32,000 bases of DNA, taken from NCBI RefSeq assembly GCF_008000775.2, contig NZ_CP042905.2:1800001-1832000 (forward strand), read 5' to 3'. Under the pieces are notes generated by a model. That model was given only the letters and a program-made list of their open reading frames with translations. It was not told the DNA's origin and searched no databases. This document shows, one piece after another, positions 316-28,631 of the stretch. Position 1 is the stretch's first letter. Every line of letters starts with the position of its first letter. The position numbers were made by a program, and so were the translations under genes. This DNA comes from Promethearchaeum syntrophicum. Lineage in GTDB: Archaea > Asgardarchaeota > Lokiarchaeia > Sigyniarchaeales > Promethearchaeaceae.

Positions 316-393
316 ACTTAATTATAAACAGATAAAATCAATAATAAAAAAATACAAATAATAGTAAAATAAAATTTAATTGGAGAAAGTATC

Positions 394-1397: not shown

Positions 1398-1409
1398 ATT
1401 ATTTAAATA

Positions 1410-2873: not shown

Positions 2874-2886
2874 TTTTTTATTTCCT

Positions 2887-3657: not shown

Positions 3658-3659
3658 AA

Positions 3660-6587: not shown

Positions 6588-6719
6588 GAGTGAATCGACT
6601 CTTTAAAACATATAATTTTATTAAATTCTCAAGTAAAACAATGGAAATCCATATAACAATTTTTTTATAAAAAAAAACAAATCCAAAAATAAAAATTGAA
6701 GAATGATTTAATGCCTCAC

Positions 6720-8195: not shown

Positions 8196-8549
8196 TTACT
8201 GCTTTTTATAATTCTTTGCTGAAAATTCTTTGATTGGGTATTTTATTGCGTTCTTCTCAATTTTTTGCGCGATTATTTCTGTAAAATTTTCCAATTTCAA
8301 TGAATTTACTAAATTTATTAAATATATAAATACATCCGCCATTTCATCAGTGAGGGAATCAAGATTTTTAGGAACGAAATCGTCAGATTGAAATAAAAAA
8401 ACTTCTAATAATTCCGCGGCTTCAATGTTTAACGCTATTGCAAGAGCTTTAGGTGAATGGTATTGATTCCAATCTCTTTCATCTATAAAATTTTTAACTT
8501 TCCTCCTAAAATCCATAATTGTTGTACTTGAATCGTTTTTTAAATCCAT
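8196..8549 (-). CDS. MazG-like / dCTPase-type nucleoside triphosphate pyrophosphohydrolase
   Basis: 117-aa all-alpha protein with FIDERDWNQYHSPKALAIALNIEAAELLE and TDEMADVFIYL, the paired acidic metal-binding helices of the MazG/DCTPP1-like family. Confidence 0.7.
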   Translation of the reverse strand: MDLKNDSSTTIMDFRRKVKNFIDERDWNQYHSPKALAIALNIEAAELLEVFLFQSDDFVPKNLDSLTDEMADVFIYLINLVNSLKLENFTEIIAQKIEKNAIKYPIKEFSAKNYKKQ

Positions 8550-8564
8550 GATTGTTCATCTAAA

Positions 8565-9404: not shown

Positions 9405-9455
9405 TAGAATAGATAATACGAAAAAATATAAAAAAAATTACAACTGGATTAAATC

Positions 9456-9803
9456 ATGATAGAATTTTTTCAAGAGATCCTGATATCATTAAAAAAAATT
9501 AAAGGTATTCATGGAAGTGCAATAATTGAAAGGTACGGGGGTATAATTAGTTCAACATTACCTGGTTGGGTAAACCAAGAATTAATTGCAGCGTTGGCTA
9601 CTCATATCTTGAAAATTAGCGAAAAATCCGCTTCTGAATTAAATTTAGGGACTTTTTTGGATGCAATTATTGAGAATGAAAGAGGAAAATTACTCTTTTA
9701 TGCCATAGGTGATAAAATCGTTAGTGTTATCACAACTCATGATGCAAAATTGGGGATTTTAGATATGAAACTCAGGGCTGCTTTAGAAAAATTGAAATTT
9801 TAA
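9456..9803 (+). CDS. Roadblock/LC7 (MglB-like) domain protein
   Basis: 115 aa. IKGIHGSAIIERYGGIISSTLP...LLFYAIGDKIVSVITT follows the Roadblock/LC7 alpha-beta-alpha pattern. Confidence 0.7.
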   Translation: MIEFFQEILISLKKIKGIHGSAIIERYGGIISSTLPGWVNQELIAALATHILKISEKSASELNLGTFLDAIIENERGKLLFYAIGDKIVSVITTHDAKLGILDMKLRAALEKLKF

Positions 9804-9943
9804 AAAAGCTACTTGTAGAAAATTCGCTATAATCCTCAACAATTGAAACGATACTTATAATGCTAATTTTTCAGATTTAATATTTTGATTTAATTTTTAG
9901 GAGAAAAATTAACCTTTTTGACAAAAAAGTAAAGCTTATAATT

Positions 9944-10714
9944 TCATTTTTTCCAAATGCGATAAAATAAATCATCTTTTTTTGGCATTAACATTGAATC
10001 TTGTGGTATTGGATCATTTGTAAATTCAACAGGACAATTTTCAATAAGAACACAAGGTGTTTGTTCATCACATTCGCCCATAACGACATGTGCCGTATCA
10101 GATAATTGATCAGCTATTGCGCGAGTGGTCCATTTCATTTCATGTCCGAATAGATCCTTTCTTCCTCGACAATCTATTATCGGATGAAACCCATCAATTC
10201 CAATTGCAACTCCAACAACTCCCTTTCTTATGGGTTGAACACGAGAATCTGAAATGATTATTCCAAAATCTGTTAACCCAAATTTTTGTTTGATTTTCTG
10301 AACTAGATCACGCGCAGAGCCAAAAGGGTTCCTGGGCCAAAGTGAAACCTTTCCTTCTATACCGGAATTTGATTCGTCTATACCGCCATTAGCAATCAAA
10401 ATACCATTTTTTTCAGTAAAGAGCATTCCTGGAATACCCCCAACAATTTCATCTGATTCTTCTAAAACCAACTGAGCAAATTTTGGATCAATTTGATATT
10501 TTAAGGCAAGTTCTTCTGCTTTTTCCGAAATATTTTTCACAGATTCGATGTCAATTATTCTATTTTCAGAGGTACCCACCAATGTTTCTGCAATAACTAT
10601 AACTGATCGTTCCGTTAATTCTATTTTATTATAATCCAAAGTTTCACAGATTACTTCAAACAGATTTTCATTATTTTTAATGATATGAGAAGTTTTTAGG
10701 GCCGTAACTTTCAT
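9944..10714 (-). CDS. CofE-like (F420-0:gamma-glutamyl ligase family) protein
   Basis: VIVIAETLVGTSENR, IANGGIDESNSG, SLWPRNPFGSARDL and GIIISDSRVQPIRKGVVGVAIGIDG match the CofE-family layout as I recall it. The start overlaps the upstream DHPS stop as ATGA (10711-10714). Confidence 0.65.
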   Translation of the reverse strand: MKVTALKTSHIIKNNENLFEVICETLDYNKIELTERSVIVIAETLVGTSENRIIDIESVKNISEKAEELALKYQIDPKFAQLVLEESDEIVGGIPGMLFTEKNGILIANGGIDESNSGIEGKVSLWPRNPFGSARDLVQKIKQKFGLTDFGIIISDSRVQPIRKGVVGVAIGIDGFHPIIDCRGRKDLFGHEMKWTTRAIADQLSDTAHVVMGECDEQTPCVLIENCPVEFTNDPIPQDSMLMPKKDDLFYRIWKK

Positions 10715-12048
10715 TTGCTATAACCTTCAAATGTTTTTGAATACCTTATTTTAGCTTCCTTTTCTTTTTTTAGAGTATTTTCAATTAAGGATGCAATAAT
10801 ATCTAATTTTAGATGTTGACCTTTTAGTTTTTTTATCAAGCTTTTAAATTGACCAATCGTCCCTATTAACACAACATCAAAGATTTCCTCGGTTTTCTTC
10901 CATTCAGTTGAGATTACTTGACTGTGGGTAGCAGCATCTCCTCCTCTTGAAAGGAGTTCTTGTTTTAAAATCAAAGCTGCAGGAGCTGTGATATTATGTA
11001 GAACAATTAACTTATTGATCATTTTTTGGTTCATAATTTTTGAACCACCAGGAAAGACGCCATATGATCTTAAAAAGTAATCAGCACCAAGAGGATTTGT
11101 AAAAGGATCAATGATTTCACAAATATGACTATCAGCTTTTGAGATTATCGGTTTCTTTCGAATTGATGTTGCAACTTTAATTGTTTGTTTAACCTTTTGA
11201 TCAACATCATGTGTGCGAATAATATGGGCTCCATTATATACGGCAATCGAAGTTGCAGCTAAACTCCCTATTTCTCTTTTATCTGTGTCAGATTCATCAA
11301 GAATAGAACCAATGAAGGATTTTCTTGATAATCCAATAAGAATCGGATTTCTAAAACAACGAAAACTTTCGATCGAATCAAGTATCGCGAGATCATATTC
11401 GTAGGTCTTTTCAGAAATCCATTTACCTATCCCGGGGTCAACAATTACTTTACTTGTATCATATCCCTTATCTCGAAGTTGAGTTATGGTAGCGTGTAAA
11501 GCCTTTAGAATTTCATCAATAGATTTTCTGTCTCCCGGTTTATTTTCTGTAGCCATTAGTACAATTGGGCATCCATATTCACATATAATATCAATCATTT
11601 TTGGATCTGTTTTAAACGAGCTTATATCGTTGATAATAGATCTAATCTCATTTTTTTTAGCAAATTCTAATCCCAATTTCGCAATTTCTGCATATTGAGT
11701 ATCAAATGAAAGAATAATATCTTTAGGAAAGTGCTTTGATAACAGATTTAGTGCATTTAATATGCGTTTTTTCTCTTCTTCAACAGAAATTACATCTGAC
11801 CAAGGAGCAGTAGATCTTGCCCCTATATCGATGATAGATGCTCCATTTTTAATAAAATTCTTGAGCTTCTCAATTAAACTATCATTTGGAACAAAGGAAT
11901 TTTTATGGAAACTTTCTGGGCTTAAATTAATTACACCCATAATTCTAACTGGATTAAAATCACCAATTGAGTAACCCGGAAATAATTCATTATTGATAAT
12001 CCCCATTAATCTGAAATAATGTTTCCAATTATTTATATTTTGAAACAA
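10711..12048 (-). CDS. folP: dihydropteroate synthase family (pterin-binding) protein with ~140-aa C-terminal extra domain
   Basis: Pterin-binding motifs GVINLSPESF, DIGARSTAP, SFDT, DPGIGK, GLSRKSFIG and IRTHDV. Residues ~300-445 lie beyond the TIM-barrel core. Whether it serves the folate or the methanopterin branch cannot be decided from sequence. Confidence 0.8.
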   Translation of the reverse strand: MFQNINNWKHYFRLMGIINNELFPGYSIGDFNPVRIMGVINLSPESFHKNSFVPNDSLIEKLKNFIKNGASIIDIGARSTAPWSDVISVEEEKKRILNALNLLSKHFPKDIILSFDTQYAEIAKLGLEFAKKNEIRSIINDISSFKTDPKMIDIICEYGCPIVLMATENKPGDRKSIDEILKALHATITQLRDKGYDTSKVIVDPGIGKWISEKTYEYDLAILDSIESFRCFRNPILIGLSRKSFIGSILDESDTDKREIGSLAATSIAVYNGAHIIRTHDVDQKVKQTIKVATSIRKKPIISKADSHICEIIDPFTNPLGADYFLRSYGVFPGGSKIMNQKMINKLIVLHNITAPAALILKQELLSRGGDAATHSQVISTEWKKTEEIFDVVLIGTIGQFKSLIKKLKGQHLKLDIIASLIENTLKKEKEAKIRYSKTFEGYSK

Positions 12049-12295
12049 TATTTCAATTTGATTGAATATTAGAATTTTGGTGATTATATTAGTTTATAAA
12101 AATTTTATGTTGGAATTTTTAATTTGAATTAATGATTTTCATAATTACTATTAGAATTTGCATCTTTTTTATTGAATTTTCTATCGAAATCGATCATATT
12201 TAAAGAGAAATTCTTAATAGAGGTCGAGCATTATATTTCTATGTATAAACAAAAAAAAATCCACCCTTTTGCGCTATTTTCAATTATTTTTATTA

Positions 12296-14533
12296 ATGGA
12301 TGATGAATATATGAGTTCAAAAAAGATTCAGCTTAAAATTAAAGGAGATTTAAATAATAAAAATAAAACCGAAACAAAAGATAAAAATGATTCAGCGGAA
12401 AATATTGTTGTTCAAGAAGGATTAGAAGAAAGTAATAAAAATACTCCTTCCCAAAATGAAGAAATAACTCCAAAAGCAATAAATAAGAATGAATTCCAAC
12501 AAAAAACATCAAAACCTGAATCCAAAATAAAAAAAGATTATAATGCAGAAAACATCGTTGTTTTAGAAGGATTAGAAGGGATTAGAAAACGACCTTCCAT
12601 GTACATCGGCTCTCAAGGAAGGCGAGGATTTCACCATCTTGCTTTTGAAGTAATTGATAATTCAATTGATGAAGTGATTGGAGGATTTTGTTCGAAAATC
12701 CAAGTTATTCTTGAAGCAGATAATTCATGTACCATTAGAGATAACGGTCGTGGTATACCAGTTTCAAAGCATCCTAAGAAGGGAGTTTCTTCCTTAGAAA
12801 TTGTTTTTACATCTCTTCATTCAGGTGGAAAATTTGATAAAAAATCCTACGCGGTGTCCGGAGGACTTCATGGGGTTGGTCTGGCAGTAGTTAATGCTTG
12901 TTCGGAATGGTCTACGGCAAAAGTCAGAAGAAATGGAAAACTATACAAGATAAAAATGGCTCGAGGTCATATTATCGACCATTTATCTGAAAGAGAGACA
13001 GATAGAGCATTGGATGATACAGGTACCGAGATTCAATTTTTACCAGATAAGGAAATATTTACTGGAATGGAAGAAGAACAATATCTGTTTGATTATGATT
13101 ATTTAGCAGGAAGATTAAGAGATCTTGCTTATTTAAATCCAATTGAGATCGAAATTATTGACAGAAGAGCGGAGAAAGAAAAAAGTGAAATTTTCAAGTA
13201 TGAAGATGGATTAGCTGATTTCGTCAATTATCTGAATAAAGCCAAGAAGACACTGCATGAAAATATTGTCCATTTTAAAAAAAAGAGCAATGGGATTATT
13301 GTTGAATTATCTTTTCAATATAATGAATCATATAATGAAATTGTTCAGTCATTCGTAAATAATATAAACACTATCGAAGGGGGTACCCATTTAACAGGAT
13401 TTAAATCTGCCCTTTCAAGAGTATTCAATAATTACATTAAGGATCACCAGTCACAATTTAAAAATCTAAAAGATAAAACCCTAAAAGGGACGGATGTTAG
13501 AGAAGGGATTGTGGCAATTCTCTCTGTTAGTGTTCCCGAACCCCAATTTGAAGGGCAAACAAAAACAAAATTAGGAAATCCTGAAGTTAAAACCATAGTT
13601 TCCGACATTGTATATGAAGAAGTTTATCATCATTTTGATTCAAATCCAAAGGAAACCAAATCTATAATACATAAATGTATTAGCGCTCAACAAGCACGAC
13701 TTGCTAGTCAAAAAGCTAGAGAACTAACCAGAAGAAAATCTGCTTTGGAAACCTTACGCTTACCTGGGAAATTAGCTGATTGTTCTTCAAAAAAAGCTGA
13801 AGAATGTGAAATTTTTATTGTCGAGGGAGATTCTGCAGGTGGATCTGCAAAACAAGGAAGAAATCGCAGTACTCAAGCAATTTTACCATTACGAGGTAAA
13901 ATTTTGAACGTAGAAAAATCCAGGATCGGAAAAATCCTTGAAAATAAAGAAATTGCAGCAATGATTAAAGCCATCGGTGTTGGGATCGACGAAGGGAAAA
14001 ACAATGGAGATGAAGAGGATGATGATGATGATGAGGAAAGCCAATTCGATATTTCTCAACTTAGGTATCATAAAATAATTATAATGTGTGATGCTGATGT
14101 TGATGGACATCATATCGAGACTTTATTATTAACATTTTTCTTTAGATATATGAGACCTTTAATTGATGAGGGTCATATTTATCTTGCCGTACCGCCAATT
14201 TACAAACTAAATTACAAAAATAAATTTAAATATCTATATATTGCAGATGAAGCCAAACTACTTAATGCCGAATTAGAATCTTTCATGAAAGAACATAAAA
14301 TATCAGATATTTCAAAAATTAAAGTTCAACGATATAAGGGGTTAGGGGAAATGAATCCCGAAGAATTATGGGATACTACAATGGAACCTGAGAACAGGCG
14401 CTTAATCAGAGTTAAATATGATGATTTCACTAACACCGATATTCTCTTTTCAATTCTAATGGGGAGTGAAGTAGCACCACGACGGGAATATATAGTTGAA
14501 AATTATAATAAAGTATTGAATTTGGATATTTAG
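12296..14533 (+). CDS. gyrB: DNA gyrase subunit B
   Basis: GLEGIRKRPSMYIG, EVIDNSIDE and GGLHGVG (GHKL ATPase). EGDSAGGSAKQGR, PLRGKILNVE and DADVDGHHI (Toprim). The ORF is open from TTG 12269; ATGs lie at 12296 and 12311. There is a ~95-aa K/N-rich N-terminal extension. Confidence 0.92.
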   Translation: MDDEYMSSKKIQLKIKGDLNNKNKTETKDKNDSAENIVVQEGLEESNKNTPSQNEEITPKAINKNEFQQKTSKPESKIKKDYNAENIVVLEGLEGIRKRPSMYIGSQGRRGFHHLAFEVIDNSIDEVIGGFCSKIQVILEADNSCTIRDNGRGIPVSKHPKKGVSSLEIVFTSLHSGGKFDKKSYAVSGGLHGVGLAVVNACSEWSTAKVRRNGKLYKIKMARGHIIDHLSERETDRALDDTGTEIQFLPDKEIFTGMEEEQYLFDYDYLAGRLRDLAYLNPIEIEIIDRRAEKEKSEIFKYEDGLADFVNYLNKAKKTLHENIVHFKKKSNGIIVELSFQYNESYNEIVQSFVNNINTIEGGTHLTGFKSALSRVFNNYIKDHQSQFKNLKDKTLKGTDVREGIVAILSVSVPEPQFEGQTKTKLGNPEVKTIVSDIVYEEVYHHFDSNPKETKSIIHKCISAQQARLASQKARELTRRKSALETLRLPGKLADCSSKKAEECEIFIVEGDSAGGSAKQGRNRSTQAILPLRGKILNVEKSRIGKILENKEIAAMIKAIGVGIDEGKNNGDEEDDDDDEESQFDISQLRYHKIIIMCDADVDGHHIETLLLTFFFRYMRPLIDEGHIYLAVPPIYKLNYKNKFKYLYIADEAKLLNAELESFMKEHKISDISKIKVQRYKGLGEMNPEELWDTTMEPENRRLIRVKYDDFTNTDILFSILMGSEVAPRREYIVENYNKVLNLDI

Positions 14534-17882: not shown

Positions 17883-19274
17883 TTGGATGAAAAAACAAAA
17901 AATGGATTGGATCAAAAAAGTGTGATTAAACCAACCGATACATTCCCTGATAATAATATAGTGTATAGAGTTGCGCATTTTATTCAAAAATATAGAGTTA
18001 ATAGATTTTTCCAATATGTTCCCTTCACAATTTTTAGAGCTCTCTCTGTTCCAATTGGTTTTCAGCATGCAGTTAATGGCCATTCTCAATTATCGAAGAC
18101 ATGGAAATTCCTATACCCTCCAAAATTCTTAGAGAAAATTAATTTAAAAAGATGGACAAATTCCTTTATTCGGTACAATATTCAACTGTATTTTGATCAG
18201 GCTTTATATTTATCACTTAGAAATTCAAAAAATAAAGATTTTTTCCATCCTGTAGTTGGTTTAAACCACCTTGAAAAAGCGATTCGCCAAAAAAAGGGGG
18301 TACTAATACCCTTAATTCATTTGGGGGAATATCTCCACCCTTTATATACGCTTTTCCATCGCAATGTAAACGTGGCTGAGAATTCCCAAAAAATTTTTGT
18401 TGCTGCGTTATCCTCGAAAGAGAACGAATTCCTTTTTAGAGAAGAAATTAAGAAAATTGATAATCTTTCAGCAATTATTACAACGGATTTTAAATCTGTG
18501 CAAAAAACAGTTCAATTTTACTTAAAAAAAAATTATTGTGTATTTCTTGCTCAAGATTACTACGCTAAGAAACAATTAAGAGTGCCCTTTCTCTACAATT
18601 CAAAATTCTACAATTTTCTCACACCTTGTCCTCAGATGTTAACAAATCTCCATCTAAATTTAGGATGTCCTATTATTCCAGTAACTACATACCCAAGACA
18701 GAATTTGAAATTCTCCGTTGTAAAATTCCTACCTGAAATTAATCCTATGACTGTGGATATTTCCAATGAAGATCAAACACTTCAAAAAGAAATCATGAAA
18801 TTTCGGGATGGAACTCTTACCAAAAAGCAAAAATATGGTTTATTATCTCTCTTAATTAATAGAAAGCTGAATTATTATTTATTACAGTACCCCTATTTAT
18901 GGCAAGGAGCATTTCTATTCTTCGATAGAACCCAGTTAAGAATTAAGTTTAAAAATGTAAAGTCTTACATTCAAATGTTGAAAATTAGTATTTCAAAATT
19001 AGTATTATTTATCCAAAATTCATATGAACCTGGTAGAAAAGATGAAGTTATTTTAAATACTTTAAAAACCTTTATTGCTGATTTAGAGGAGATTAAAGAG
19101 GATCCAAGAGACATCGTCACTTTAAAAAATAGTTATATTGAAATTAGTTGCCTTAATGGGAAAAAAGTATTTAATAAAGTTGTTAAAATTCTATTAACCT
19201 ATCAAAATTCCCATATTAAGCAAAACCACAGTTTCATTTCTCCGAGATTAAAATCCCTACTAAAGCTATTTTAA
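17883..19274 (+). CDS. LpxL/HtrB-like lysophospholipid acyltransferase family protein with C-terminal extension
   Basis: TTG start with GGTGA 8 nt upstream. KKGVLIPLIHLGEYLHP corresponds to G(V)xxxxxHxGNWE. YLKKNYCVFLAQDYYAKKQLRVPF corresponds to ALKKGExVxxxxDQD...xFxPFF. LQYPYLWQ corresponds to PEQYLWxHRR. These comparisons are from my memory of E. coli LpxL. Confidence 0.5.
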   Translation: MDEKTKNGLDQKSVIKPTDTFPDNNIVYRVAHFIQKYRVNRFFQYVPFTIFRALSVPIGFQHAVNGHSQLSKTWKFLYPPKFLEKINLKRWTNSFIRYNIQLYFDQALYLSLRNSKNKDFFHPVVGLNHLEKAIRQKKGVLIPLIHLGEYLHPLYTLFHRNVNVAENSQKIFVAALSSKENEFLFREEIKKIDNLSAIITTDFKSVQKTVQFYLKKNYCVFLAQDYYAKKQLRVPFLYNSKFYNFLTPCPQMLTNLHLNLGCPIIPVTTYPRQNLKFSVVKFLPEINPMTVDISNEDQTLQKEIMKFRDGTLTKKQKYGLLSLLINRKLNYYLLQYPYLWQGAFLFFDRTQLRIKFKNVKSYIQMLKISISKLVLFIQNSYEPGRKDEVILNTLKTFIADLEEIKEDPRDIVTLKNSYIEISCLNGKKVFNKVVKILLTYQNSHIKQNHSFISPRLKSLLKLF

Positions 19275-19405: not shown

Positions 19406-20740
19406 ATGATAAATGAATTAAATGAATTTCGCTTGAAATTTAAAGAACAATGGTGGTGCGTTAGCGCCTTTACTGACCTAGATAATGAAAATTTGACTGA
19501 TGAGATTGAAAAATTGAACAAGTATACAAAAAATCAACTTAGTTCTTTTAAAGAATCAGATATTAACCCAAGATTCGTGCCGGATGCAAATGATCGACAA
19601 AAAATTGCGTTTTTATCCCAAAACCTCCAAATTGAGCTAACTTGGGATAATTATATTGACAATTTCAATTTTAAAACTGATAATTACACCTACGATAAAT
19701 TAGGTTATTTATTATTTCGCATTCGGCTCAAAGATAATTCAAGTGTAAATATTTTCGATGTTAGACCTAATTATCTGCAGCAAATTATTTTCCATGTATG
19801 GTTTGGATTAACTAAGAAATTCCAATTTGAATTTAAATTCGATGATTCAACTCCTCCCTACATTGTATCTGTTTGCTCTGGAACTAATAATAATTCTGTA
19901 ATTGAATGGAAAAAGGAAAATATTCATAAATATAAATCGGAATTAGGTCAGTGGATCCAATTATATTCTGGACAGTTTCCCGATTATAGAGATGAATTAT
20001 ATGAAAGACGAATTGAAGTCGATCTATCAAATCGAACATCCGAAATGCATTTTATAAATCGTAATTCTGGTTTAATATATATGGAACCTGATAATTATAA
20101 GCGATTTTTTATCAAAGATAAAGATTCTCCTGATTCTAGCGGATATATGCATAATACGGTTGTTAGAACCATTATTCAAATCCGTTCTATCGCTTTTGCA
20201 ATGATAGTTGTTAGCAATGAAGTTGATAAAGACACCGGACAATTAGGTTCAGATGAATTTATGGCTAAAAAATCAAAAGAAATAAAAGATAATCTAGAAA
20301 AAACTAATAAACTAAAATTAATTCTGCAAAAAACGCTTTCTCCATTCTTTTCAGATTTGACCCGTTCTCATCGACAACATTATCATGCTGTACTTAAACG
20401 TTGCGTCGAAATTAATGAAATTGAGAAAAATTGGAAACTTATCCTCGAAAAAATTGATTCAAATACTCAAGAAATGAATTCAATCTTTTTAGATAAACAA
20501 GAAGAAGCATCTGACCGACAGGAAAAAATTCTTAACATGGTCAATATCATATTAGGTGCAGGAATTGTATTTGATATTATAGGATTTATTATTTCTGAAG
20601 AAAGTGTCCAAAAATTAATAGTTCAAATCATCGGTGGGGGATTATTATTGTTTCTTGTAGTATTATTCCTGAAATTATATGGTCCAAAAAGAAAGAAAAA
20701 AACGAAAAAAAAGGAATCTGAAAAGGGAGAAGAAGATTAA
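19406..20740 (+). CDS. hypothetical membrane protein with CorA-like topology (soluble N-domain, helical stalk, 2 C-terminal TM helices, polybasic tail)
   Basis: TM helices ILNMVNIILGAGIVFDIIGFII and LIVQIIGGGLLLFLVVLFLKLYG are separated by an 8-aa loop and followed by KRKKKTKKKESEKGEED. Residues ~260-370 are a charged helical region. There is no GMN motif. Confidence 0.6.
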   Translation: MINELNEFRLKFKEQWWCVSAFTDLDNENLTDEIEKLNKYTKNQLSSFKESDINPRFVPDANDRQKIAFLSQNLQIELTWDNYIDNFNFKTDNYTYDKLGYLLFRIRLKDNSSVNIFDVRPNYLQQIIFHVWFGLTKKFQFEFKFDDSTPPYIVSVCSGTNNNSVIEWKKENIHKYKSELGQWIQLYSGQFPDYRDELYERRIEVDLSNRTSEMHFINRNSGLIYMEPDNYKRFFIKDKDSPDSSGYMHNTVVRTIIQIRSIAFAMIVVSNEVDKDTGQLGSDEFMAKKSKEIKDNLEKTNKLKLILQKTLSPFFSDLTRSHRQHYHAVLKRCVEINEIEKNWKLILEKIDSNTQEMNSIFLDKQEEASDRQEKILNMVNIILGAGIVFDIIGFIISEESVQKLIVQIIGGGLLLFLVVLFLKLYGPKRKKKTKKKESEKGEED

Positions 20741-20755
20741 AGGGAGATAATTTAA

Positions 20756-23578
20756 TTGGCAATTGAAATCAATAAAACTCCAAAACCTTTAACTGAAATT
20801 CTTTCAGAATTACACGGTGAAGGTTTTATCATATATGCCGGAGCGGGGATATCTATTCCTGCCCCAACATGTGCACCATCTTGGTGGACTCTAACCGAAG
20901 AAATTCTCTCTGCTTTTTTTAAACGCGTTCCAGATGAATATGGATTACCTGGAGATATGATAATTAAAAGCGAAATTTGGCAACCTGAGATTATTTTTGA
21001 AAGTTTTGCAAAATTATTTGACGAATACCTCTATAAAGTTTTTCCTGTACTTGATGTTGCTCAATCAAACGGAAATCATCGAATTATTGCTCAACTAGCT
21101 AAACTTGGCGTTTTAAAAGCCGTTTTTACAACGAATTTTGATATTTATATAGAAAAAGCACTCCGCGATGAAGGTGTAGAATTTGAAGTTATAATTGATA
21201 ATGATCAATATGATGAACTTTATAATCAATTAAGCTCCCAAGGTTTTGGTTCCAAATTTCTCCTTTGTAAAATTCATGGAACCACAGAACGCCCAGATAC
21301 TATTGTAAGTGTTGCGTCTGCCTATAAAAGTTCAAAAGGATTTTCTCCACCAAAATCTCAAGTCCTTCAATGGTTAATGAAACGTTATCCAACTTTGTTT
21401 TTGGGATATTCTGGTTGGGATTTTGAACATAACAATTATCGAAAATTTTGGGATCGCACGGGACCGACTTTAAAACATATTTATTGGAATCGACGTCCGG
21501 GAGAAACTGGAGGGCCAAATTTCGATACGATTTTTAGTTCATGCAAGAATAAATTCGATTTCTGTGAATCCGATCTTCCAAGTGGATGGCTTAATGCTTT
21601 AAAACAGAACGTATCTTTGGGATTTGAAGAAATTGAAAATCAAATTTCAACAATTGAAGATCTATCGAATCAAATAAAGGATAAAAGACAAGAATTTCTT
21701 AATAATTGGGCAATGGCTATCTCCGAAGCCTCTACTCTTGCTGCGGTTATAACTGAAGGAATTCATTTCTCTGCAGCATTTCGGACTAAATTAGAGCAAA
21801 CCAAACAACAACAAGCAGCTCAGGTTCAAGTTTCTCCTGAGAAAATGGCAGAGCTTCAAAGAAAAAATCAAGAAGTTACTGCTAAATTACAAAATCCTTC
21901 CTTAACAGCAGATGAGAGAGCAACCATCATGCAAGAAATGTTCTATACCCAAATGGAAATGCAGCTTTCTTACATTAAACCAGAAGAAAAAGAGATGATC
22001 AAACACCTTTTCATCGAAAATCGATATCCTGGAATTACCGATAGTCAAATTTATAGACCCCAATTTTTAGGAAAAATAACTCCTTGTCTGGGACGCTTCT
22101 CAGCTGCTGAAGCTATCGATATCGCTCTTGATTTTATTAATCGGGATATAGAAACACAGAAGAAACAAGCAGAGATGCAAGCTGCAGGTAAATCAACCCA
22201 AGAAGCCTTTGAATTTGCTCAGGCTGAAATGGATGTAAACCGAGCTATTTTTGGTATCATGCAACCCGAAGAAGAAAAATGGAAACCTGCTTATGATGAA
22301 ATGTTAATTTCAAAAGAAAAATTTTTCGCAAAGGAAATAGATAGAGCCGCATTTATGGCGGAATTGGCGGGAATTTGTGAAAAAGCCGTTAAAAAAGATA
22401 TGGGTTTGGAAATTCCAGTAATGGATTTACTATCAAAATTAGTTCAAAATACTGCATCTGCTCCAACTCCAGAAGAATTTAATGAACGATGCCAAGCTTT
22501 ATTTCTTGCGGTGACAATGGCTGCTGCAAATTTTAACTCTCATTTGATGAAAACTGCCGAATCTAATGCTTTAGTAAAAGCTATGATGGGAGGAGTCACA
22601 AACGCTCCAAGTGTACCTGATCCTGCAATGATTCAACAATCTCAACAAGCTATGGCCGCTAAAGCTAAAGAATTAATGGCTCTTATGCAAAGCGGGGAAA
22701 TTGATGGGACTGAATACGGTAAACGCATGCAAATTTTCGTTGCTGAAAATCAAAAACGATTTCAACCGAAACCAATTGAAGGAAAAGGATCAGATGGTCG
22801 TGTTTTAGTCCCTCTTGAAATATTATCGGCATATGATAACAAAATCAGGGAACTATTTGGCCCCGCTTTTGATGCAGAAGCTCGATTTGAGGGTGATAAA
22901 ATATCACACGCTGAAATACTCCTCGAAATGTGTGTTTTGAGCCTATGGTTAACAATTGCTCAGGCAGGAGATGCAGAAAGTGGTCAGAAATTTCAAGTAC
23001 TCATGGCTCGCGGTGACTTCCCAATTACCTCGGGAAATGCTTCCGTTATATCATTTTTAATGGAGAAGAATAAAAATTGGATCGAAAAAGCAATGAATGA
23101 ATTACCCGCTCGATTCGGTCAACAACTCTGTACAAATCTTGTAACTGTTTCTAAATTAACGGATGATATTGAATTATGTAAACGCGCAACTCTTAAAAGC
23201 CTTGAATACACGGATGGAAAAATTAATGAATCCAATGCTTATGAGGTTCCATATACTCTAGCTCAATTCTATGAAAATCGTGGTGATGAAATTAATGCTT
23301 TAAAATATTGGAATCTCGCGCTTGATGGAGTAAGAACTTCCGTCCCTCCTGCATTCACTGATGTTATTCTATACCATACTGCCAAATTAACAGCAAAAAA
23401 TGGAGATAAACAAGTTGCTCTAAAAATGATAGGGAAATTACACCCGAATTATTTGGGAAATGAGCCACCATTTAAAACTCCCGCTCGTGATATGTCCCTG
23501 CAGCTAGCACAAAATTTGGCCCAAGAGCTTGGATATTCCACTGTAGAATCCGCTTTACAAGCATTATTGGAGCAGTAA
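20756..23578 (+). CDS. SIR2-like (NADase-type, SIR2_2-like) domain protein with long helical middle region and C-terminal TPR-like repeats
   Basis: TTG start with GGGAG 8 nt upstream, 15 nt after the preceding stop. Motifs IIYAGAGISIP (aa 25-35), FTTNFD (N127, nt 21134-21136), CKIHG (H174, nt 21275-21277) and LFLGYSGWD. No Zn-ribbon cysteines and no P-loop. C-terminal TPR-like segment: YTLAQFYENRGDEINALKYWNLALDG. Confidence 0.75.
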   Translation: MAIEINKTPKPLTEILSELHGEGFIIYAGAGISIPAPTCAPSWWTLTEEILSAFFKRVPDEYGLPGDMIIKSEIWQPEIIFESFAKLFDEYLYKVFPVLDVAQSNGNHRIIAQLAKLGVLKAVFTTNFDIYIEKALRDEGVEFEVIIDNDQYDELYNQLSSQGFGSKFLLCKIHGTTERPDTIVSVASAYKSSKGFSPPKSQVLQWLMKRYPTLFLGYSGWDFEHNNYRKFWDRTGPTLKHIYWNRRPGETGGPNFDTIFSSCKNKFDFCESDLPSGWLNALKQNVSLGFEEIENQISTIEDLSNQIKDKRQEFLNNWAMAISEASTLAAVITEGIHFSAAFRTKLEQTKQQQAAQVQVSPEKMAELQRKNQEVTAKLQNPSLTADERATIMQEMFYTQMEMQLSYIKPEEKEMIKHLFIENRYPGITDSQIYRPQFLGKITPCLGRFSAAEAIDIALDFINRDIETQKKQAEMQAAGKSTQEAFEFAQAEMDVNRAIFGIMQPEEEKWKPAYDEMLISKEKFFAKEIDRAAFMAELAGICEKAVKKDMGLEIPVMDLLSKLVQNTASAPTPEEFNERCQALFLAVTMAAANFNSHLMKTAESNALVKAMMGGVTNAPSVPDPAMIQQSQQAMAAKAKELMALMQSGEIDGTEYGKRMQIFVAENQKRFQPKPIEGKGSDGRVLVPLEILSAYDNKIRELFGPAFDAEARFEGDKISHAEILLEMCVLSLWLTIAQAGDAESGQKFQVLMARGDFPITSGNASVISFLMEKNKNWIEKAMNELPARFGQQLCTNLVTVSKLTDDIELCKRATLKSLEYTDGKINESNAYEVPYTLAQFYENRGDEINALKYWNLALDGVRTSVPPAFTDVILYHTAKLTAKNGDKQVALKMIGKLHPNYLGNEPPFKTPARDMSLQLAQNLAQELGYSTVESALQALLEQ

Positions 23579-23602
23579 GAGCGAATAATCCAAAATCCAA
23601 TC

Positions 23603-23628
23603 TTTTTTAAATTTTTTATTTATTTTTT
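23603..23628 (+). terminator. three T6 runs downstream of the SIR2 gene
   Basis: tcTTTTTTaaaTTTTTTatttaTTTTTTcc, read directly starting 25 nt after the stop. This is an archaeal-type oligo-T termination signal. Confidence 0.4.
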
Positions 23629-23717
23629 CCTCGCAAATATAAATTTAGAAATGAATTTTTATTATAAATTTGTATAGATATTTTTATGAGTATTTTCTAT
23701 ATTAATTAGTGAAAAAT

Positions 23718-23915
23718 ATGAGTGATGGATCGAACATTAAACAAATGGTGGTTGATTTAATCCGAAACCTACCTAATGATGTCACCCTTGAAGATATTCA
23801 GTATCATTTATTTGTAAAGCAAAAAATACAAAAAGCAGAACATCAAATTGAAGCTGGTGAGATAATCCCTCATAAAGACGTTATGGAGAATTTAAAAAAG
23901 AAATGGTTTCCATAG
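23718..23915 (+). CDS. type II antitoxin (small helical addiction-module component paired with ParE/RelE-like toxin)
   Basis: 65-68 aa (GTG at 23709 or ATG at 23718). Overlaps the downstream toxin gene by 13 nt. Paralogous to 25733..25909. Confidence 0.65.
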   Translation: MSDGSNIKQMVVDLIRNLPNDVTLEDIQYHLFVKQKIQKAEHQIEAGEIIPHKDVMENLKKKWFP

Positions 23916-24193
23916 AGTGGACACAAGAGGCTAATTTTGATTTTAATGAAATTTTGGCATACTTGTCAAATGCTTCTCCACAATACGCACATGCTCTTTT
24001 TGAAAAAGTGAAGGATGCTTTAGTGAATTTGAAAAAATTTCCTAAATTAGGTCGAAAAGTTCCTGAATCAGATAATGAAAACGATAGAGAATTAATTATT
24101 CAAAAATATCGATTGATTTACCGCTTTGTTGAAGATGTTGATAAAATATTTGTCCTAATGATAATCCATGGTAGTCGAATTCTAAACTTCTAA
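23903..24193 (+). CDS. ParE/RelE-superfamily type II toxin (plasmid stabilisation system protein family)
   Basis: 96 aa. WTQEANFDFNEILAYL...FPKLGRKVPE...RELIIQKYRLIYRF...IFVLMIIHGSR is the typical ParE/RelE layout. Confidence 0.75.
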   Translation: MVSIEWTQEANFDFNEILAYLSNASPQYAHALFEKVKDALVNLKKFPKLGRKVPESDNENDRELIIQKYRLIYRFVEDVDKIFVLMIIHGSRILNF

Positions 24194-24982: not shown

Positions 24983-25600
24983 ATGCCAAGCAGAAGAGCA
25001 GATAATACATTAGTGTTTAAAGTAGTGTTCTGGGGTCCCTCAATGGGCGGTAAAACGTGTGCATTGGAGTGGATATATCAGAAAGAGGGTCTTGCTAGCG
25101 GTAAACTTCAATCTATAACAGATCCTACAGGGCGGACTCTTTTCTTCGATAGAGTTGTTGCAAAAGTGTCTAATGTTGTATTTCAAACTTACACTGTAGC
25201 AGGTCAACGTAGGCATAAATATCAAAGAAAAACCGTTTTGAAAGGTAGCGATGCATTAGTATTCGTTTGGGATTCTTCATCCGATCAGTGGGAAGAAAAC
25301 ATCTTTTCTCTAAAGGAATTATTGAACTTTTATGGCCCTAAAGTTATGCCTGGTGCTGATGGTAATACTGAAGTTCCACTCGTTCTGATGGCTAACAAGA
25401 GAGATTTACCTAATCCGACCCCTATTGATAAGATTAGAGAAGTTTTGAACGCTGCGAAACTGAGTAATGTTTTAATATATGAAACGATAGCAATTACAGG
25501 CGTTAATGTGAAGCGAGCATTTGTGTTTTCTGCACGTGAAGCTGTTTTAAGACATTACATGCGTTTACAATCAGGTGCCACGGTCCCGAAAGCAGAATAA
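24983..25600 (+). CDS. mglA: MglA-like Ras-superfamily small GTPase
   Basis: G1 FWGPSMGGKT. Switch region GRTLFFD. G3 YTVAGQ (MglA-type TVxGQ instead of DxxGQ). G4 NKRD. Collinear with my recollection of Myxococcus MglA (KIVYYGPGLCGKTT...DRTLFFDF...LYTVPGQ...LKGVDGVVFVADS...YNKRDLPNA). Confidence 0.8.
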   Translation: MPSRRADNTLVFKVVFWGPSMGGKTCALEWIYQKEGLASGKLQSITDPTGRTLFFDRVVAKVSNVVFQTYTVAGQRRHKYQRKTVLKGSDALVFVWDSSSDQWEENIFSLKELLNFYGPKVMPGADGNTEVPLVLMANKRDLPNPTPIDKIREVLNAAKLSNVLIYETIAITGVNVKRAFVFSAREAVLRHYMRLQSGATVPKAE

Positions 25601-25732
25601 TCTTTTTTTCCCTAACATTTCTTTTTTTCCATTTCGTAATTGGAAAATTTCAATCATTTATTAATTAATAAATTAATTAATTACGATTTTTTATATATTC
25701 ATGATTCTTTATTAGAAATGGGACTATTTATC

Positions 25733-25909
25733 ATGCAAACTTTAAAGGAAAGCGTAATTAGATTCTTGAAAAACCAATCAGATGATGTTAATGCAGAGGA
25801 CATAATCGAATTTGTGATCATGAATCAGAAACTCGCTGAAGGAGAAAAAGATCTACAAGAGGGGCGAATTTATACGCATGACCAAGCAAAAGAGATTTTG
25901 AAAAGATAG
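25733..25909 (+). CDS. type II antitoxin, paralogue of 23718..23915
   Basis: MQTLKESVIRFLKNQSDDVNAEDIIEFVIMNQKLAEGEKDLQEGRIYTHDQ aligns with IKQMVVDLIRNLPNDVTLEDIQYHLFVKQKIQKAEHQIEAGEIIPHKD. The track ORF from TTG 25640 adds an implausible 31-aa leader. Confidence 0.6.
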   Translation: MQTLKESVIRFLKNQSDDVNAEDIIEFVIMNQKLAEGEKDLQEGRIYTHDQAKEILKR

Positions 25910-25920
25910 GAACAATAATA

Positions 25921-26190
25921 TGGACTGAATCTTCTTTAGAAGATTTGAAAGAAATTAAAAGCTTTATCTCCCATGATTCAAAGAAATTTGCGAATTAATT
26001 TATTGATAGACTATTTCAAACAACTGAAATTTTAGCGAAATTTCCTAAAATCGGAAAAAAAATTAAATCTATTCAGAATTCCGAATATAGAATGATTGTT
26101 TTTAAAAAATATCGAATTATATATAAAGAAATTGAAGAGAAGGTAAAAATTATAAGAGTCCTTCAAGCAAACAGAATGATGGATATATAA
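25921..26190 (+). pseudogene. decayed ParE/RelE-like toxin (in-frame TAA at 25996-25998, no canonical start)
   Basis: The frame starting at 25921 reads WTESSLEDLKEIKSFISHDSKKFAN*FIDRLFQTTEILAKFPKIGKKIKSIQNSEYRMIVFKKYRIIYKEIEEKVKIIRVLQANRMMDI*, collinear with the intact toxin at 23903..24193. It is preceded by ATA ATA rather than ATG. Confidence 0.65.
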
Positions 26191-26419: not shown

Positions 26420-26701
26420 ATGAAAAAATATAACTCCCTATAATGTTAATTTTTTGATGAGATCCTATTATTGAATATTTAAATTAATTCCTTAAACAAT
26501 GAAGAGAAATTAAAGAATTGAATAACAAAAACCATATGGTTCATATGGAAGAATGAAAAACCCTTATTTTACATAATGATGATGGATTAAATTCATATGA
26601 TTTTTTTCACCTATTATAATTAGGTTAATCGGAAATTGAAGAAGTTTCCAGAGAAAATTTTCCGAATAACCCTTTACTATAAAAAAAAGAGGAAAAAAAA
26701 A

Positions 26702-27946
26702 ATGCAATTAGTGATATTACAAGATATTGACCCCGGAACTATAATCGGAGCAATATTTATTGGATTGGCATTGATCATTGCTTCAGGGGTATTTTTTTAT
26801 TTCAAAAATATGATTGTGGTGCCATTTAACGAAATTCATGTTATATCGAGTGGAACTAAGACAAAAACATTTGATGGAAAAGGAAGGTATTGTTTTATAA
26901 AATTTCTCATGAGTAAAACAATAATTCCAAAGCATGTCCTTGACATCGAACCGGGATTATTAGATCTCCTTGATTGCGACAATCTTCCATTCGGTGTGGA
27001 AATATCTGTCAAAGTACAGGTAACTGACCCTCAAAAAGCAGCGGCTACTTTAACACGAATAGATCATAGTACCGTTGCCAAAGTTGTAGAAGATACTGTA
27101 ATGTCCGCAGCAAGATCCATTGCTATGGAGAGAACAATTCTAGATATTATGAAAAAACGTGAAGAAGTCGAACAACGAGTTTACAGTATGGTAGCAGATG
27201 CCTTGGGCAAGCTTGGATTATCAGCTATAATTTTTGACATCAAAAATATTCGTGATACTGAGGGAAATGATGTAATCACCTCATTGGAACGAGTTAAAAT
27301 TGCAGAATTGCGGAAAAATGCTCAAGTGGCCGAAGCTATTCATAATAAAGAATCCTTCGTTAAAAGTGAACAAATGAAACAAGAACAAGAAACTGCAAGA
27401 TTAATTAAAGAACAAGATATCATTGCTAAGCAAGTCCTTGTTGATCAAGAACGTTTAATCTTAGATAAACAACAATCAACCAAGAAAGCTGAAATCGAAA
27501 AAGAACGTCTAAAAATAATGGCAGAAGCCGAAAAGGAAAAAAATATGATAGATGCTGAAGCAGAAGCAGAAGTGATCAGAGTAAAAGCAGAAGCAGAAGC
27601 AGAAGCAATCAAGTTGAAAGCTATAGCTAATGCAGAAGCTATTTTAAAGAAAGGTATTGCAGAAGCTGAGGTTCTAAAGAAGAAAAATGCTGCTATGGGG
27701 GGTAATTACGCAGCTCAAATAGAATTATCAAAGATTTTAAGTAAAGCTCAAATTGATTCCGCAGGAAAAATTGCTGAAGCCCTGGGAAAAAATAACAAAA
27801 TAATGTATCTTCCAGTAGATGGAGATAACGGGCTACTCTCAAATTTCTTGCCGAAAATCGATGCCTTTTTCCAATCTGGAATACCCACTGATATTATGGG
27901 ACAATTGTCTGGGAAAAAAAATATTAAAAAACTAGCTTCAAAATAA
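26702..27946 (+). CDS. flotillin-like SPFH/band-7 domain protein
   Basis: N-terminal TM/hairpin IIGAIFIGLALIIASGVFFYF, then an SPFH core (VVPFNEIHVISSG...FGVEISVKVQV). A long coiled coil carries Glu-Ala repeats (AEAEAEVIRVKAEAEAEAIKLKAIANAEA), the flotillin hallmark. The track ORF from TTG 26636 adds a poly-Lys leader encoded by an A-tract, so I prefer ATG 26702. Confidence 0.85.
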   Translation: MQLVILQDIDPGTIIGAIFIGLALIIASGVFFYFKNMIVVPFNEIHVISSGTKTKTFDGKGRYCFIKFLMSKTIIPKHVLDIEPGLLDLLDCDNLPFGVEISVKVQVTDPQKAAATLTRIDHSTVAKVVEDTVMSAARSIAMERTILDIMKKREEVEQRVYSMVADALGKLGLSAIIFDIKNIRDTEGNDVITSLERVKIAELRKNAQVAEAIHNKESFVKSEQMKQEQETARLIKEQDIIAKQVLVDQERLILDKQQSTKKAEIEKERLKIMAEAEKEKNMIDAEAEAEVIRVKAEAEAEAIKLKAIANAEAILKKGIAEAEVLKKKNAAMGGNYAAQIELSKILSKAQIDSAGKIAEALGKNNKIMYLPVDGDNGLLSNFLPKIDAFFQSGIPTDIMGQLSGKKNIKKLASK

Positions 27947-27983
27947 TACTTTTTTTTTTAAAAATTTTTTTGAGGTGAAGAAA

Positions 27984-28631
27984 ATGGTAAAGGTTCCTGT
28001 GGGCGAAAAGGTTGAAATAAATCTTTGGGATTCGGACAAGAAACGCGGAATTGCTAAATATTTTTCGAGTACGATGGATCTTGTAAGAGCAGAAAGTGAA
28101 TTTGAACTTAATCCCGGGGATACTGCAGTGGTAGTAGAATCTTATGATAGTTTTATCGTTGTAGTGCCAGAAGATGACTATACAAAGTTATTAAGTGGAA
28201 AGAATATTGAAAATATTGATCCTGTTGGCTTAAATAGACAAATTTATAAAATCTTAAAGGAAAGAATGAAAGAAACCGGTGGAATTCTATCCCTTGATGA
28301 ATTATGGTCTATTTTAAATCGAACTTCGATCCAAAACATATTAGATAAAAAAGATCTTAAAAAAGCCATTAACATAAAAGATAGTCCGTTCGATAGAATA
28401 AAGGTCGAAGGGAGGGTATATATAGCTCTTCGTCCCCAAGAAAATATGGAAGATATAAAATTAATAGTGAAATTTGGGAGAGAAGCATCATTTCTAACGA
28501 AAAATCTAATTCGCACTTCCTTTAATTGGTCAGATTTACGTATAGAACGTTTACTTTGGTACTTAATAGATCAAGGGTCCTGCAGGATTGAAAATCAATT
28601 CAGAACGGGTACTCGTTATTATTTTTTATAA
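27984..28631 (+). CDS. EAP30 (ESCRT-II Vps22/Vps36-like) tandem winged-helix protein with N-terminal NfeD-like beta domain
   Basis: GAGGTGA lies 5 nt upstream of ATG 27984. Compared with human SNF8 from memory: ETGGILSLDELWSILNRTS...KKDLKKAI...VEGRVYIALRPQE matches NGGLITLEELHQQVL...QDDLIRAI...VGGTYLIQSVPAE, and NMEDIKLIV...FNWSDLRIERLLWYLIDQG...GTRYYF matches NMDHTVVLQ...LKWETERARQVLEHLLKEG...EAHYWL. The N-terminal LVRAESEFELNPGDTAVVVESYDSFIVVVP resembles the NfeD C-terminal OB-fold. Confidence 0.6.
   Translation: MVKVPVGEKVEINLWDSDKKRGIAKYFSSTMDLVRAESEFELNPGDTAVVVESYDSFIVVVPEDDYTKLLSGKNIENIDPVGLNRQIYKILKERMKETGGILSLDELWSILNRTSIQNILDKKDLKKAINIKDSPFDRIKVEGRVYIALRPQENMEDIKLIVKFGREASFLTKNLIRTSFNWSDLRIERLLWYLIDQGSCRIENQFRTGTRYYFL

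Follow-up and report, generated by a model that had tools for sequence, protein, structure and literature searches.

A SIR2-family protein and a CorA-like membrane protein encoded side by side in Promethearchaeum syntrophicum: candidate parts of an Asgard NAD+/ADP-ribose-linked module

Overview

We analysed a window of 32,000 nucleotides (nt) from the chromosome of the Asgard archaeon Promethearchaeum syntrophicum MK-D1 (contig NZ_CP042905.2, positions 1,800,001 to 1,832,000), and in it two adjacent genes that encode a CorA-like membrane protein of 444 amino acids (aa) and a SIR2-family protein of 940 aa. In our tentative reading, to which we give a probability of about 0.45, the pair is the MK-D1 version of an Asgard module linked to nicotinamide adenine dinucleotide (NAD+) and ADP-ribose, which has up to three parts (a SIR2 enzyme, a CorA-fold protein and a NUDIX hydrolase), with a slight lean towards defence. 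The components are of known kinds, namely a SIRim NADase, a CorA-family effector and a NUDIX hydrolase, and their combination was not found described. Full-text literature searches revealed no description of a system of SIR2, CorA-like and NUDIX proteins, and they agree with the initial annotation of this DNA, made from the sequence alone, that no named system pairs a SIR2 with a CorA-like protein. SIR2, DSR and CorA are not mentioned in the two Asgard and archaeal defence surveys that were checked.

Structure of the gene pair

Both proteins are 100% identical to database entries from P. syntrophicum MK-D1, the host. A list of open reading frames (ORFs) reproduced the positions, strand, lengths and start codons initially given for the two genes, and the GGGAG site and the oligo-T stretch described around them were likewise found:

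19406-20740, plus strand: predicted CorA-fold protein with two transmembrane (TM) helices, 444 aa; ORF with ATG start, 100% match to P0076, listed at NCBI as 'hypothetical protein DSAG12_02209'
20742-20746, plus strand: Shine-Dalgarno-like site GGGAG, 9 nt 5' of the TTG start of the SIR2 gene, read directly from the sequence
20756-23578, plus strand: SIR2-helical protein with a tail resembling tetratricopeptide repeats (TPR-like), 940 aa; ORF with TTG start, 100% identical to P0001, annotated 'SIR2 family protein'
23602-23629, plus strand: T-rich tract with three T6 runs (23603-23628), 25-50 nt past the SIR2 stop codon

The gap between the 444-aa and the 940-aa gene measures 15 nt. Given the short gap, the separate ribosome-binding site of the second gene and the T6 runs behind its stop codon, one shared transcript, and with it an operon, is very probable. 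The T-rich tract would be a plausible archaeal oligo-T terminator for the pair.

The 940-aa SIR2 protein

Three regions can be distinguished in the 940-aa protein:

20783-21625, plus strand: SIR2 catalytic domain of the SIRim/defence type, aa ~10-290 (Pfam, PADLOC, invariant columns, ThsA alignment, Foldseek)
21653-22825, plus strand: variable all-helical middle region, aa ~300-690 (secondary structure of the model; 24-30% regional identity)
22826-23575, plus strand: conserved C-terminal helical-repeat (TPR-like) region, aa 691-940 (regional identity, profile matches, eukaryotic alignment)

The sole Pfam match of the protein was SIR2_2 (PF13289; aa 122-237, E=2e-14, 54.1 bits with a curated cut-off of 24.5). 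Fourteen PADLOC families matched at E<=0.1, none of them a DSR model; these models, among them ThsA1 (E=4e-10), PDC-S65 and the SIR2 associated with short pAgo, matched the SIR2 domain only. The domain carries the motifs GAGIS (aa 29-33), TTNFD (125-129, with N127), KIHG (172-175, with H174) and GYSGWD (217-222); GAGIS had been reported correctly, but one residue too early (28-32). In an alignment of 42 homologues the residues G29, A30, G31, S33, T125-T126-N127-F128-D129, K172, H174, G175 and G217-Y218-G220-D222 are invariant.

N112 and H152 are reported to be the catalytic residues of ThsA. A profile search of the PDB placed TTN(127)FD and KIH(174)G of the Asgard protein onto TTN(112)YD and KMH(152)G of Bacillus ThsA (PDB 6lhx, E=4e-6), so the proposed SIR2 fold and the alignment of its N and H both hold. 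The Pfam profile of canonical sirtuin deacylases (SIR2, PF02146) did not match the 940-aa protein, and a motif scan found neither a CxxC pair nor a P-loop in it. The earlier assignment to the NADase/defence type and not to the deacetylases is therefore upheld by the SIR2_2 and ThsA1 matches together with the missing Zn-ribbon CxxC and PF02146, and the statement that the protein is no STAND ATPase was confirmed by the missing P-loop.

The AlphaFold model of the protein (pLDDT 86.6, pTM 0.79) consists of an alpha/beta SIR2 domain and ~650 aa that are wholly helical. With the full-length model, DSR2 was the top Foldseek match in the PDB (E=4e-8 over ~1000 columns), but with a TM-score of 0.21 and a root-mean-square deviation of ~40 A; the DSR2-like overall layout of a SIR2 domain and a helical region, as suggested before, was recovered within that limit. 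The SIR2 domain alone matched best KomC (9v0g_E, TMt 0.65), the SIR2 domain of DSR2, ThsA and the SIR2 of SPARSA.

The family is conserved over its full length in Loki-, Odin-, Sigyn- and Hermod-named archaea. Mean pairwise identities across these Asgard lineages are 57% for the SIR2 domain, 24-30% for the middle helices and 45% for the last 140 aa, which rank second in conservation and can still be recognised in homologues from eukaryotes. From the gap pattern of the alignment, a Q/A/E/M-rich stretch of the middle region (aa ~561-690) is mostly missing from a group of paralogues of ~855 aa. The label 'TPR-like' for the C-terminal tail is weakly supported by weak matches to designed TPR proteins and to the TPR region of IFT140 (profile positions ~754-855 in the PDB profile search). 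Taken together, these comparisons of sequence and structure support a SIR2 protein of the defence/SIRim type whose active site is intact and whose layout resembles that of DSR2, and which is a predicted NADase.

Comparison of MK-D1 with a congener gave a ratio of nonsynonymous to synonymous substitution rates (dN/dS) of ~0.09 for the SIR2 gene and of 0.13 and 0.11 for its two upstream neighbours; all three local genes are under strong purifying selection. No segment of the SIR2 protein falls below 79% identity between the two genomes, and a hypervariable segment is not present. Neither the SIR2 nor the CorA-like family was found on viral contigs of IMG/VR and no significant structural match was obtained in BFVD; on these grounds an origin from a virus or mobile element was rejected.

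The 444-aa CorA-like membrane protein

A cytosolic alpha/beta domain forms the N-terminal part of the 444-aa protein (aa 1-245). It leads into a helical stalk (aa 247-373), which is followed by two TM helices and then by a polybasic tail:

20525-20686, plus strand: two C-terminal TM helices, about aa 374-397 and 403-427 (hydrophobic segments at about aa 374-399 and 400-427, alignment, model helices 339-395 and 399-443)

A short acidic loop (EESVQK) joins the two TM helices, and N380 is invariant within the close family. The hallmark residues of the family are all cytosolic (W168, W183, YSGQ 187-190, D193, LSNR 207-210, E213, S221 and RSHRQHY 320-326). Sequence searches of Pfam, NCBIfam and the PDB returned no significant match for this protein, CorA (PF01544) included, and it contains no GMN, GVN or GIN motif. 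Its AlphaFold model reached a pLDDT of 83.6 and a pTM of 0.74. When the model was compared with the PDB by Foldseek, all of the top 19 matches were CorA or CmaX structures (E from 2e-3, probability <=0.99, ~350 columns). The model supports a CorA fold without GMN, in agreement with the topology and polybasic tail described in the initial annotation.

NUDIX hydrolases as partners of the CorA-like family

Among the partners observed for the CorA-like family, NUDIX hydrolases are the commonest, either fused to it or encoded next to it. A search of 1.84 billion representatives with a profile of the CorA-like alignment revealed 93 proteins, 55 of them below 1e-30, and the family is mostly restricted to Asgard archaea. 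Many of its proteins are 540-615 aa long. A Pfam NUDIX domain was detected in 14 of the 36 representatives scanned and is placed after the second TM helix, on the cytosolic side; by source name, the fused forms belong to Loki-, Hermod- and Promethearchaeota. The Nudix box shows the full consensus in five inspected representatives and a near-consensus in six more.

A separate NUDIX gene adjoins the CorA-like gene at four loci (L001, L002, L015 and L088). The four free NUDIX proteins are orthologous (50-70% identity), have intact Nudix boxes and align almost end to end with human NUDT5 and with ADP-ribose pyrophosphatases of bacteria (E=2e-16). The fused domains belong to a different subfamily, with 2yyh as best PDB match, followed by NadM-Nudix and the Nudix domains of AraR regulators (E ~1e-10 to 1e-9). 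Because fused and free NUDIX fall into different subfamilies, the association with the membrane protein arose twice, independently.

Linkage of the SIR2 and CorA-like genes across genomes

Loci of both families were gathered and scored by tblastn; few of them lie on long contigs. When metagenomes were scanned with the SIR2 alignment, generic SIR2_2 proteins of the TTNFD type dominated the matches, and only about eight true family loci emerged. SIR2 and CorA-like genes were found together in three gene orders. The Promethearchaeum-type order, which is present in the window and in L008, L009 and L025, reads gyrBA, the gene of a 463-aa protein (w463), CorA-like and SIR2. In L001 the order is SIR2 (925 aa), CorA-like (434 aa) and NUDIX (205 aa), and in L002 a CorA-like gene on the minus strand is followed by NUDIX (197 aa) and SIR2 (851 aa) on the plus strand. 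L001 and L002 come from one metagenome-assembled genome (MAG) with two paralogous triads, whose CorA-like proteins are 44% and whose NUDIX proteins are 52% identical to each other. Since the SIR2 members in the three gene orders come from different branches of the family tree, the recurrence speaks for selection on proximity. The linkage of the two genes is real but facultative. Of the two-gene module that had been proposed, the adjacency thus stands, as it recurs in three orders; a conserved operon does not, as SIR2 is missing from the corresponding slot of L010 and L087.

L015, from the CR_4 MAG, carries CorA-like and NUDIX genes and then a 101-aa remnant of the SIR2 C-terminus. This frame (8852-9157, minus strand) corresponds to the last ~100 residues of the SIR2 family and lies beside ribosomal-protein genes; it may be a relic or an assembly artefact, as the contig has runs of N.

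Solitary SIR2-family loci have genes for ribosomal proteins (L16), a tRNA intron endonuclease, molybdenum cofactor proteins, TFIIB and CDC48 as neighbours. A conserved small partner 5' of SIR2 in Odin, Sigyn and L. ossiferum was considered and rejected: the neighbours of 341-366 aa are unrelated to one another and to the 444-aa protein. At one L. ossiferum locus (L084), a HEAT-repeat protein with a TIR_2 domain (11267-12838, minus strand) is encoded two genes away from the SIR2 paralogue P0048, a single case and a possible Thoeris-like echo.

The CorA-like genes also adjoin genes for desulfoferrodoxin, rubrerythrin and rubredoxin in Harpocratesius (L017, 9485-10407), and rubredoxin and rubredoxin-reductase-like genes lie near the CorA-like gene of L001 (12223-15716). 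These two loci, and they only, hint at an oxidative-stress context for the CorA-like genes.

Eukaryotic relatives of both families

Both families also occur in marine eukaryotes. The SIR2 family is represented in two EukProt proteins, P0062 of 1563 aa and P0066 of 1313 aa. The alignment of P0062 covers residues 15-940 of the MK-D1 protein (E=8e-77), with ~47% identity in the SIR2 part and with TTNFD and KIHG retained. A search with P0062 for a wider eukaryotic distribution returned P0062 only. An intronless homologue of 1333 aa (361-4362, plus strand) was found on a metagenome contig of 11.9 kb with 43% GC (L026), next to genes for an ankyrin-repeat and a Tubby-domain protein (E=2e-44; ORFs 5804-6814, plus strand, and 8231-10690, minus strand). 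Tubby is a eukaryote-type domain, and because of this gene the contig is very probably eukaryotic. In a crude, distance-based neighbour-joining tree of the SIR2 domain, which carries no support values, six eukaryote-type sequences form one clade that is sister to all Asgard sequences. As a separate observation, P0062, P0066 and P0069 (EukProt/ENA) have N-terminal extensions of 450-830 aa, made of repeated units of ~100 aa without Pfam match.

For the CorA-like family, the marine-eukaryote transcript P0140 (MMETSP, 849 aa) encodes a CorA-like-NUDIX fusion that is 29% identical to the MK-D1 444-aa protein (E=8e-43), and a counterpart of 956 aa was found on a metagenome contig (P0217, JGI contig). 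The NUDIX domain of P0140 falls into one subfamily with the fused domains of Asgard archaea. In P0140 and P0217 the Nudix box (…KRSIMEDLG) has partly degenerated, and a long tail of low complexity is present.

Chromosomal neighbourhood

The window is core chromosome, with purF/Q/L/C, an F420 ligase, a pterin-binding enzyme and gyrB/gyrA, and further with genes for Roadblock, Arf/Ras-like GTPase, SPFH and EAP30/Vps36-like proteins and a histidine kinase. The features around the gene pair are:

17883-19274, plus strand: 463-aa protein (w463), directly 5' of the CorA-like gene also in the Promethearchaeum-like genomes L008, L009, L010 and L087
23709-24193, plus strand: overlapping genes for a ParD-like antitoxin (23709-23915) and a ParE toxin (23903-24193; PF05016 ParE_toxin, E=2e-15)
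25640-26190, plus strand: second ParE-type module, decayed, with an intact antitoxin-like ORF (25640-25909) and a ParE-like frame (25906-26190) that is a pseudogene
9456-9803: Roadblock/LC7 gene, eukaryote-signature type
24983-25600: Arf/Ras-like small GTPase gene, eukaryote-signature type
26636-27946: SPFH/Band-7 gene, eukaryote-signature type
27975-28631: EAP30/Vps36-like (ESCRT-II) gene, eukaryote-signature type

The surroundings had been described as a defence island with two ParE-type toxin-antitoxin (TA) modules downstream and an 'LpxL-like' acyltransferase upstream of the pair. The first ParDE module is intact. The second ParE-like frame, 28% identical to the first ParE, is interrupted by an in-frame TAA (…KKFAN*FIDRLF…), which leaves one of the two modules. 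The island itself was not borne out, as the genes lie in core chromosome, where a single ParDE is intact, the other ParE has decayed and a small S-adenosylmethionine (SAM) methyltransferase is retained in the absence of SIR2. The LpxL-like identity was not confirmed: Pfam, NCBIfam and PDB sequence searches returned no match for the 463-aa protein, and it has no TM segment and no HX4D/E motif. By its position, this protein could stand in for NUDIX in the Promethearchaeum lineage.

Between the CorA-like and the methyltransferase genes, SIR2 and ParDE make up an insert that varies among genomes. Depending on the genome, the slot holds ParDE, a leucine-rich-repeat protein or PadR; in L010 a leucine-rich-repeat protein of 641 aa (11023-12948, plus strand) is encoded where MK-D1 has SIR2, ParE and the methyltransferase. 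The stretch between the CorA-like gene and the small GTPase gene is a local hotspot of gene turnover. A recent horizontal acquisition of the SIR2 gene is not supported, as its GC content at third codon positions (GC3, 0.234) lies inside the range of its neighbours (0.20-0.30) and its raised total GC stems from codon positions 1 and 2.

No Cas domain was found among the ORFs of the window, a lone weak and partial Cas3d match (E=5e-4) being regarded as chance, and no TIR domain among those scanned. Two further genes lie within the purF/Q/L/C purine-biosynthesis cluster: an ORF whose match to nucleoside 2-deoxyribosyltransferase stays below the Pfam cut-off (6696-7118, plus strand; E=4e-5), and a gene for a MazG-like pyrophosphatase (8196-8549, minus strand).

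Proposed mechanism and alternative explanations

Our reading of the pair as part of an NAD+/ADP-ribose-linked module builds on what was observed, namely the structure of the genes, the folds, the conserved motifs, the statistics of fusions and neighbourhoods and the homologues in eukaryotes. By analogy with DSR2, a cue acting through the helical/TPR-like region would release the SIR2 domain, which may then cleave NAD+ to nicotinamide and ADP-ribose, as its intact catalytic residues and their alignment with ThsA suggest. ADP-ribose or a close derivative would bind the cytosolic domain of the CorA-like protein, presumably a pentamer, and open or perturb the membrane; this step is suggested by the fold and the partner genes, and an NAD+-derived ligand of the ADP-ribose type is proposed mainly because of the links to NUDIX and to SIR2. 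A NUDIX hydrolase could destroy the ligand and so reset or limit the response, as judged from the similarity to NUDT5 and from the CorA-NrN precedent in CRISPR systems; in MK-D1 the locus does not include this component. The module might serve abortive-infection-type defence or stress and metabolic signalling, and we lean slightly to conflict or defence.

Several observations weigh against this reading. L087, a 75%-identical relative, keeps gyrBA, w463, the CorA-like and the methyltransferase genes without SIR2 and ParDE, and L010, from another Promethearchaeum species, has a CorA-like gene, an antitoxin, a ParE fragment and the leucine-rich-repeat protein without SIR2. No SIR2 gene was found within 7-10 kb of the CorA-like genes in L. 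ossiferum, Harpocratesius, L011 and L088, and eight SIR2-family loci (L003, L004, L006, L020, L022, L082-L084) have no CorA-like or NUDIX neighbour. There is no NUDIX gene in the MK-D1 window, and the best PDB match of the fused NUDIX domains is labelled as an 8-oxo-dGTPase domain, the match to NadM-Nudix, of the ADP-ribose type, being weaker. The Foldseek TM-scores of the 444-aa protein to CorA are low (0.2-0.33), as is to be expected when a protein with such long helices is modelled as a monomer. On the defence side, the core-chromosome location, native GC3, Asgard-wide conservation, low dN/dS and absence from IMG/VR contigs have to be set against the reading, and conservation and eukaryotic reach of the kind seen in the SIR2 family are not usual for a fast-evolving virus sensor. 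A defence role for the pair is possible: the nearest SIR2 relatives are antiphage NADases, and the gene comes and goes in a variable slot and seems to have decayed in L015.

The same biochemistry could operate without any antiviral role, in non-immune NAD+/ADP-ribose signalling or homeostasis such as a redox or energy-stress response analogous to TRPM2 gating. The full-length conservation across Asgard archaea (57% and 45%), a dN/dS of ~0.09 without hypervariable segment, the housekeeping neighbours elsewhere, the native GC3, the lack of members on viral contigs and the desulfoferrodoxin, rubrerythrin and rubredoxin genes near CorA-like genes of Harpocratesius and L001 all argue for it, and ancient TRPM2 channels were active NUDIX channel-enzymes (PMC6461439). 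We still consider it somewhat unlikely: the SIR2 domain is closest to antiphage NADases (ThsA, KomC, DSR2 and SPARSA) and to no housekeeping enzyme, the gene shows presence/absence polymorphism in a TA-bearing slot and decay in L015, and the oxidative-stress neighbourhood is confined to two loci. Alternatively, the two proteins may not be coupled at all, the SIR2 protein being a stand-alone DSR2-like NADase in a variable slot and the true partner of the CorA-like channel being NUDIX or, in MK-D1, the 463-aa protein. SIR2 and ParDE do behave as an insert, as the L087 and L010 slots without SIR2 illustrate, and most SIR2-family genes are solitary; DSR2 itself works as a single protein. However, the adjacency occurs in at least three CorA-like sublineages (44-49% identical) in varied orders and orientations and with SIR2 from different branches, a chance adjacency of two low-copy families among several thousand genes would be rare even once, and the 15-nt gap with its own ribosome-binding site is a sign of an operon, all of which makes independence of the two proteins improbable.

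Far less likely still is a housekeeping Mg2+/Co2+ transporter of the CorA type beside a protein-deacetylase sirtuin. The UniRef label 'CorA-like Mg2+ transporter' of the 444-aa protein and the CorA structures in the fold search fit this explanation, but motif and profile tests contradict it: the 444-aa protein has no CorA profile match and no GMN motif and comes from a mostly Asgard family with NUDIX fusions, so that an ordinary CorA orthologue, the outcome against which the initial annotation had cautioned, is not supported, and the SIR2 protein lacks the Zn-ribbon cysteines and PF02146 and matches SIR2_2 and ThsA instead.

If the proposed mechanism holds, the signal-gated effectors of the CorA family, for which SAM-AMP in type III CRISPR systems is so far the only known case, would gain an NAD+-derived ligand and a NUDIX enzyme that switches the signal off. 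It would also open a first way to the function of an Asgard SIR2 family that is large and conserved but uncharacterised. Because both families have homologues in marine eukaryotes, NADase-based immunity or signalling in prokaryotes could moreover be connected, in a testable way, with ADP-ribose signalling in eukaryotes. A bolder extension, which we hold to be unlikely, is an ancient ADP-ribose second-messenger pathway common to Asgard archaea and some eukaryotes. It would join a SIRim NADase with a helical/TPR-like sensor to a CorA-fold channel that ADP-ribose gates and that bears a NUDIX ADP-ribose hydrolase or has one beside it, a prokaryote-type channel-enzyme functionally equivalent to TRPM2-NUDT9H; genes of both families would have been transferred between Asgard archaea and early or marine eukaryotes. 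Since MK-D1 is in culture and both proteins gave confident models, the predictions of NADase activity, ADP-ribose binding and channel function can be put to a direct test.

Comparison with known systems

The SIRim proteins, including human FAM118A/B (SIRanc), share with the 940-aa protein the GxG and xxNxD motifs, the missing Zn site and a distribution over prokaryotes and eukaryotes (bioRxiv 10.1101/2024.09.18.613514). The protein gave a weak profile match to FAM118B structures (E ~0.1). It differs in its helical/TPR-like tail, and the clade of Asgard archaea plus protists found in this analysis does not appear in the text of bioRxiv 10.1101/2024.09.18.613514.

With CorA, ZntB and CmaX the 444-aa protein has in common a predicted cytosolic alpha/beta domain, a long stalk helix and two C-terminal TM helices; unlike them, it has neither GMN nor a Pfam CorA match, and NUDIX fusions occur in its family. 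Its cytosolic motifs YSGQ..DY, LSNR.SE.HF and RSHRQHY also differ from those described for CorA.

In type III-B CRISPR, a divergent CorA-family protein binds the second messenger SAM-AMP (Bacteroides fragilis Cmr; PMC10600005). The type III CorA proteins with NrN, DEDD or SAM-AMP lyase partners resemble the Asgard family in form, with SIR2 as the candidate producer of the signal and with CorA-like proteins adjacent to or fused with a hydrolase, here NUDIX. This pattern of a neighbouring or fused signal degrader is seen in the Asgard family (14 of 36 fused; adjacent in L001, L002, L015 and L088), but not in the MK-D1 window. No cas10 or cmr gene is among the annotated genes of the window, the presumed signal is a product of NAD+ instead of SAM-AMP, and the degrader is NUDIX instead of DHH, DEDD or lyase. 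TRPM2 channels are gated by ADP-ribose through a NUDT9-homology domain (PMC6461439, PMC5671594), and ancestral TRPM2 channels retained NUDIX catalysis (PMC6461439). As is proposed for the fused Asgard proteins, they are channels whose NUDIX domain lies at the cytosolic C-terminus and which are linked to ADP-ribose made from NAD+; a TRP tetramer with six TM helices is nevertheless far from a CorA-like protein with two, so that the comparison, and gating in the Asgard protein with it, is by analogy only.

By the tests applied, the 940-aa protein stands outside both DSR2 and ThsA. With DSR2 of Bacillus subtilis it shares the N-terminal SIR2 NADase domain, the Asn/His pair, the long helical region and a similar total length (~1000 aa). 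Membership is not supported: no DSR model is among the PADLOC matches, and at a TM-score of 0.21 the domain geometry differs. DSR2 is activated by a phage tail-tube protein. The Asgard C-terminal region is, moreover, conserved into eukaryotes and not visibly fast-evolving, and its gene is sometimes linked to CorA-like and NUDIX genes. ThsA of Thoeris has the closest SIR2 domain by sequence profile, and its catalytic N and H align. In contrast to ThsA, the 940-aa protein has no SLOG or Macro domain (SIR2_2 is followed by a C-terminal part of 650 helical aa), and no TIR gene (ThsB) lies beside the SIR2 gene in the window, for which reasons ThsA membership was rejected. The two would also differ in their place in the pathway: ThsA is an effector activated by a signal, whereas the Asgard SIR2 enzyme is proposed to produce one.

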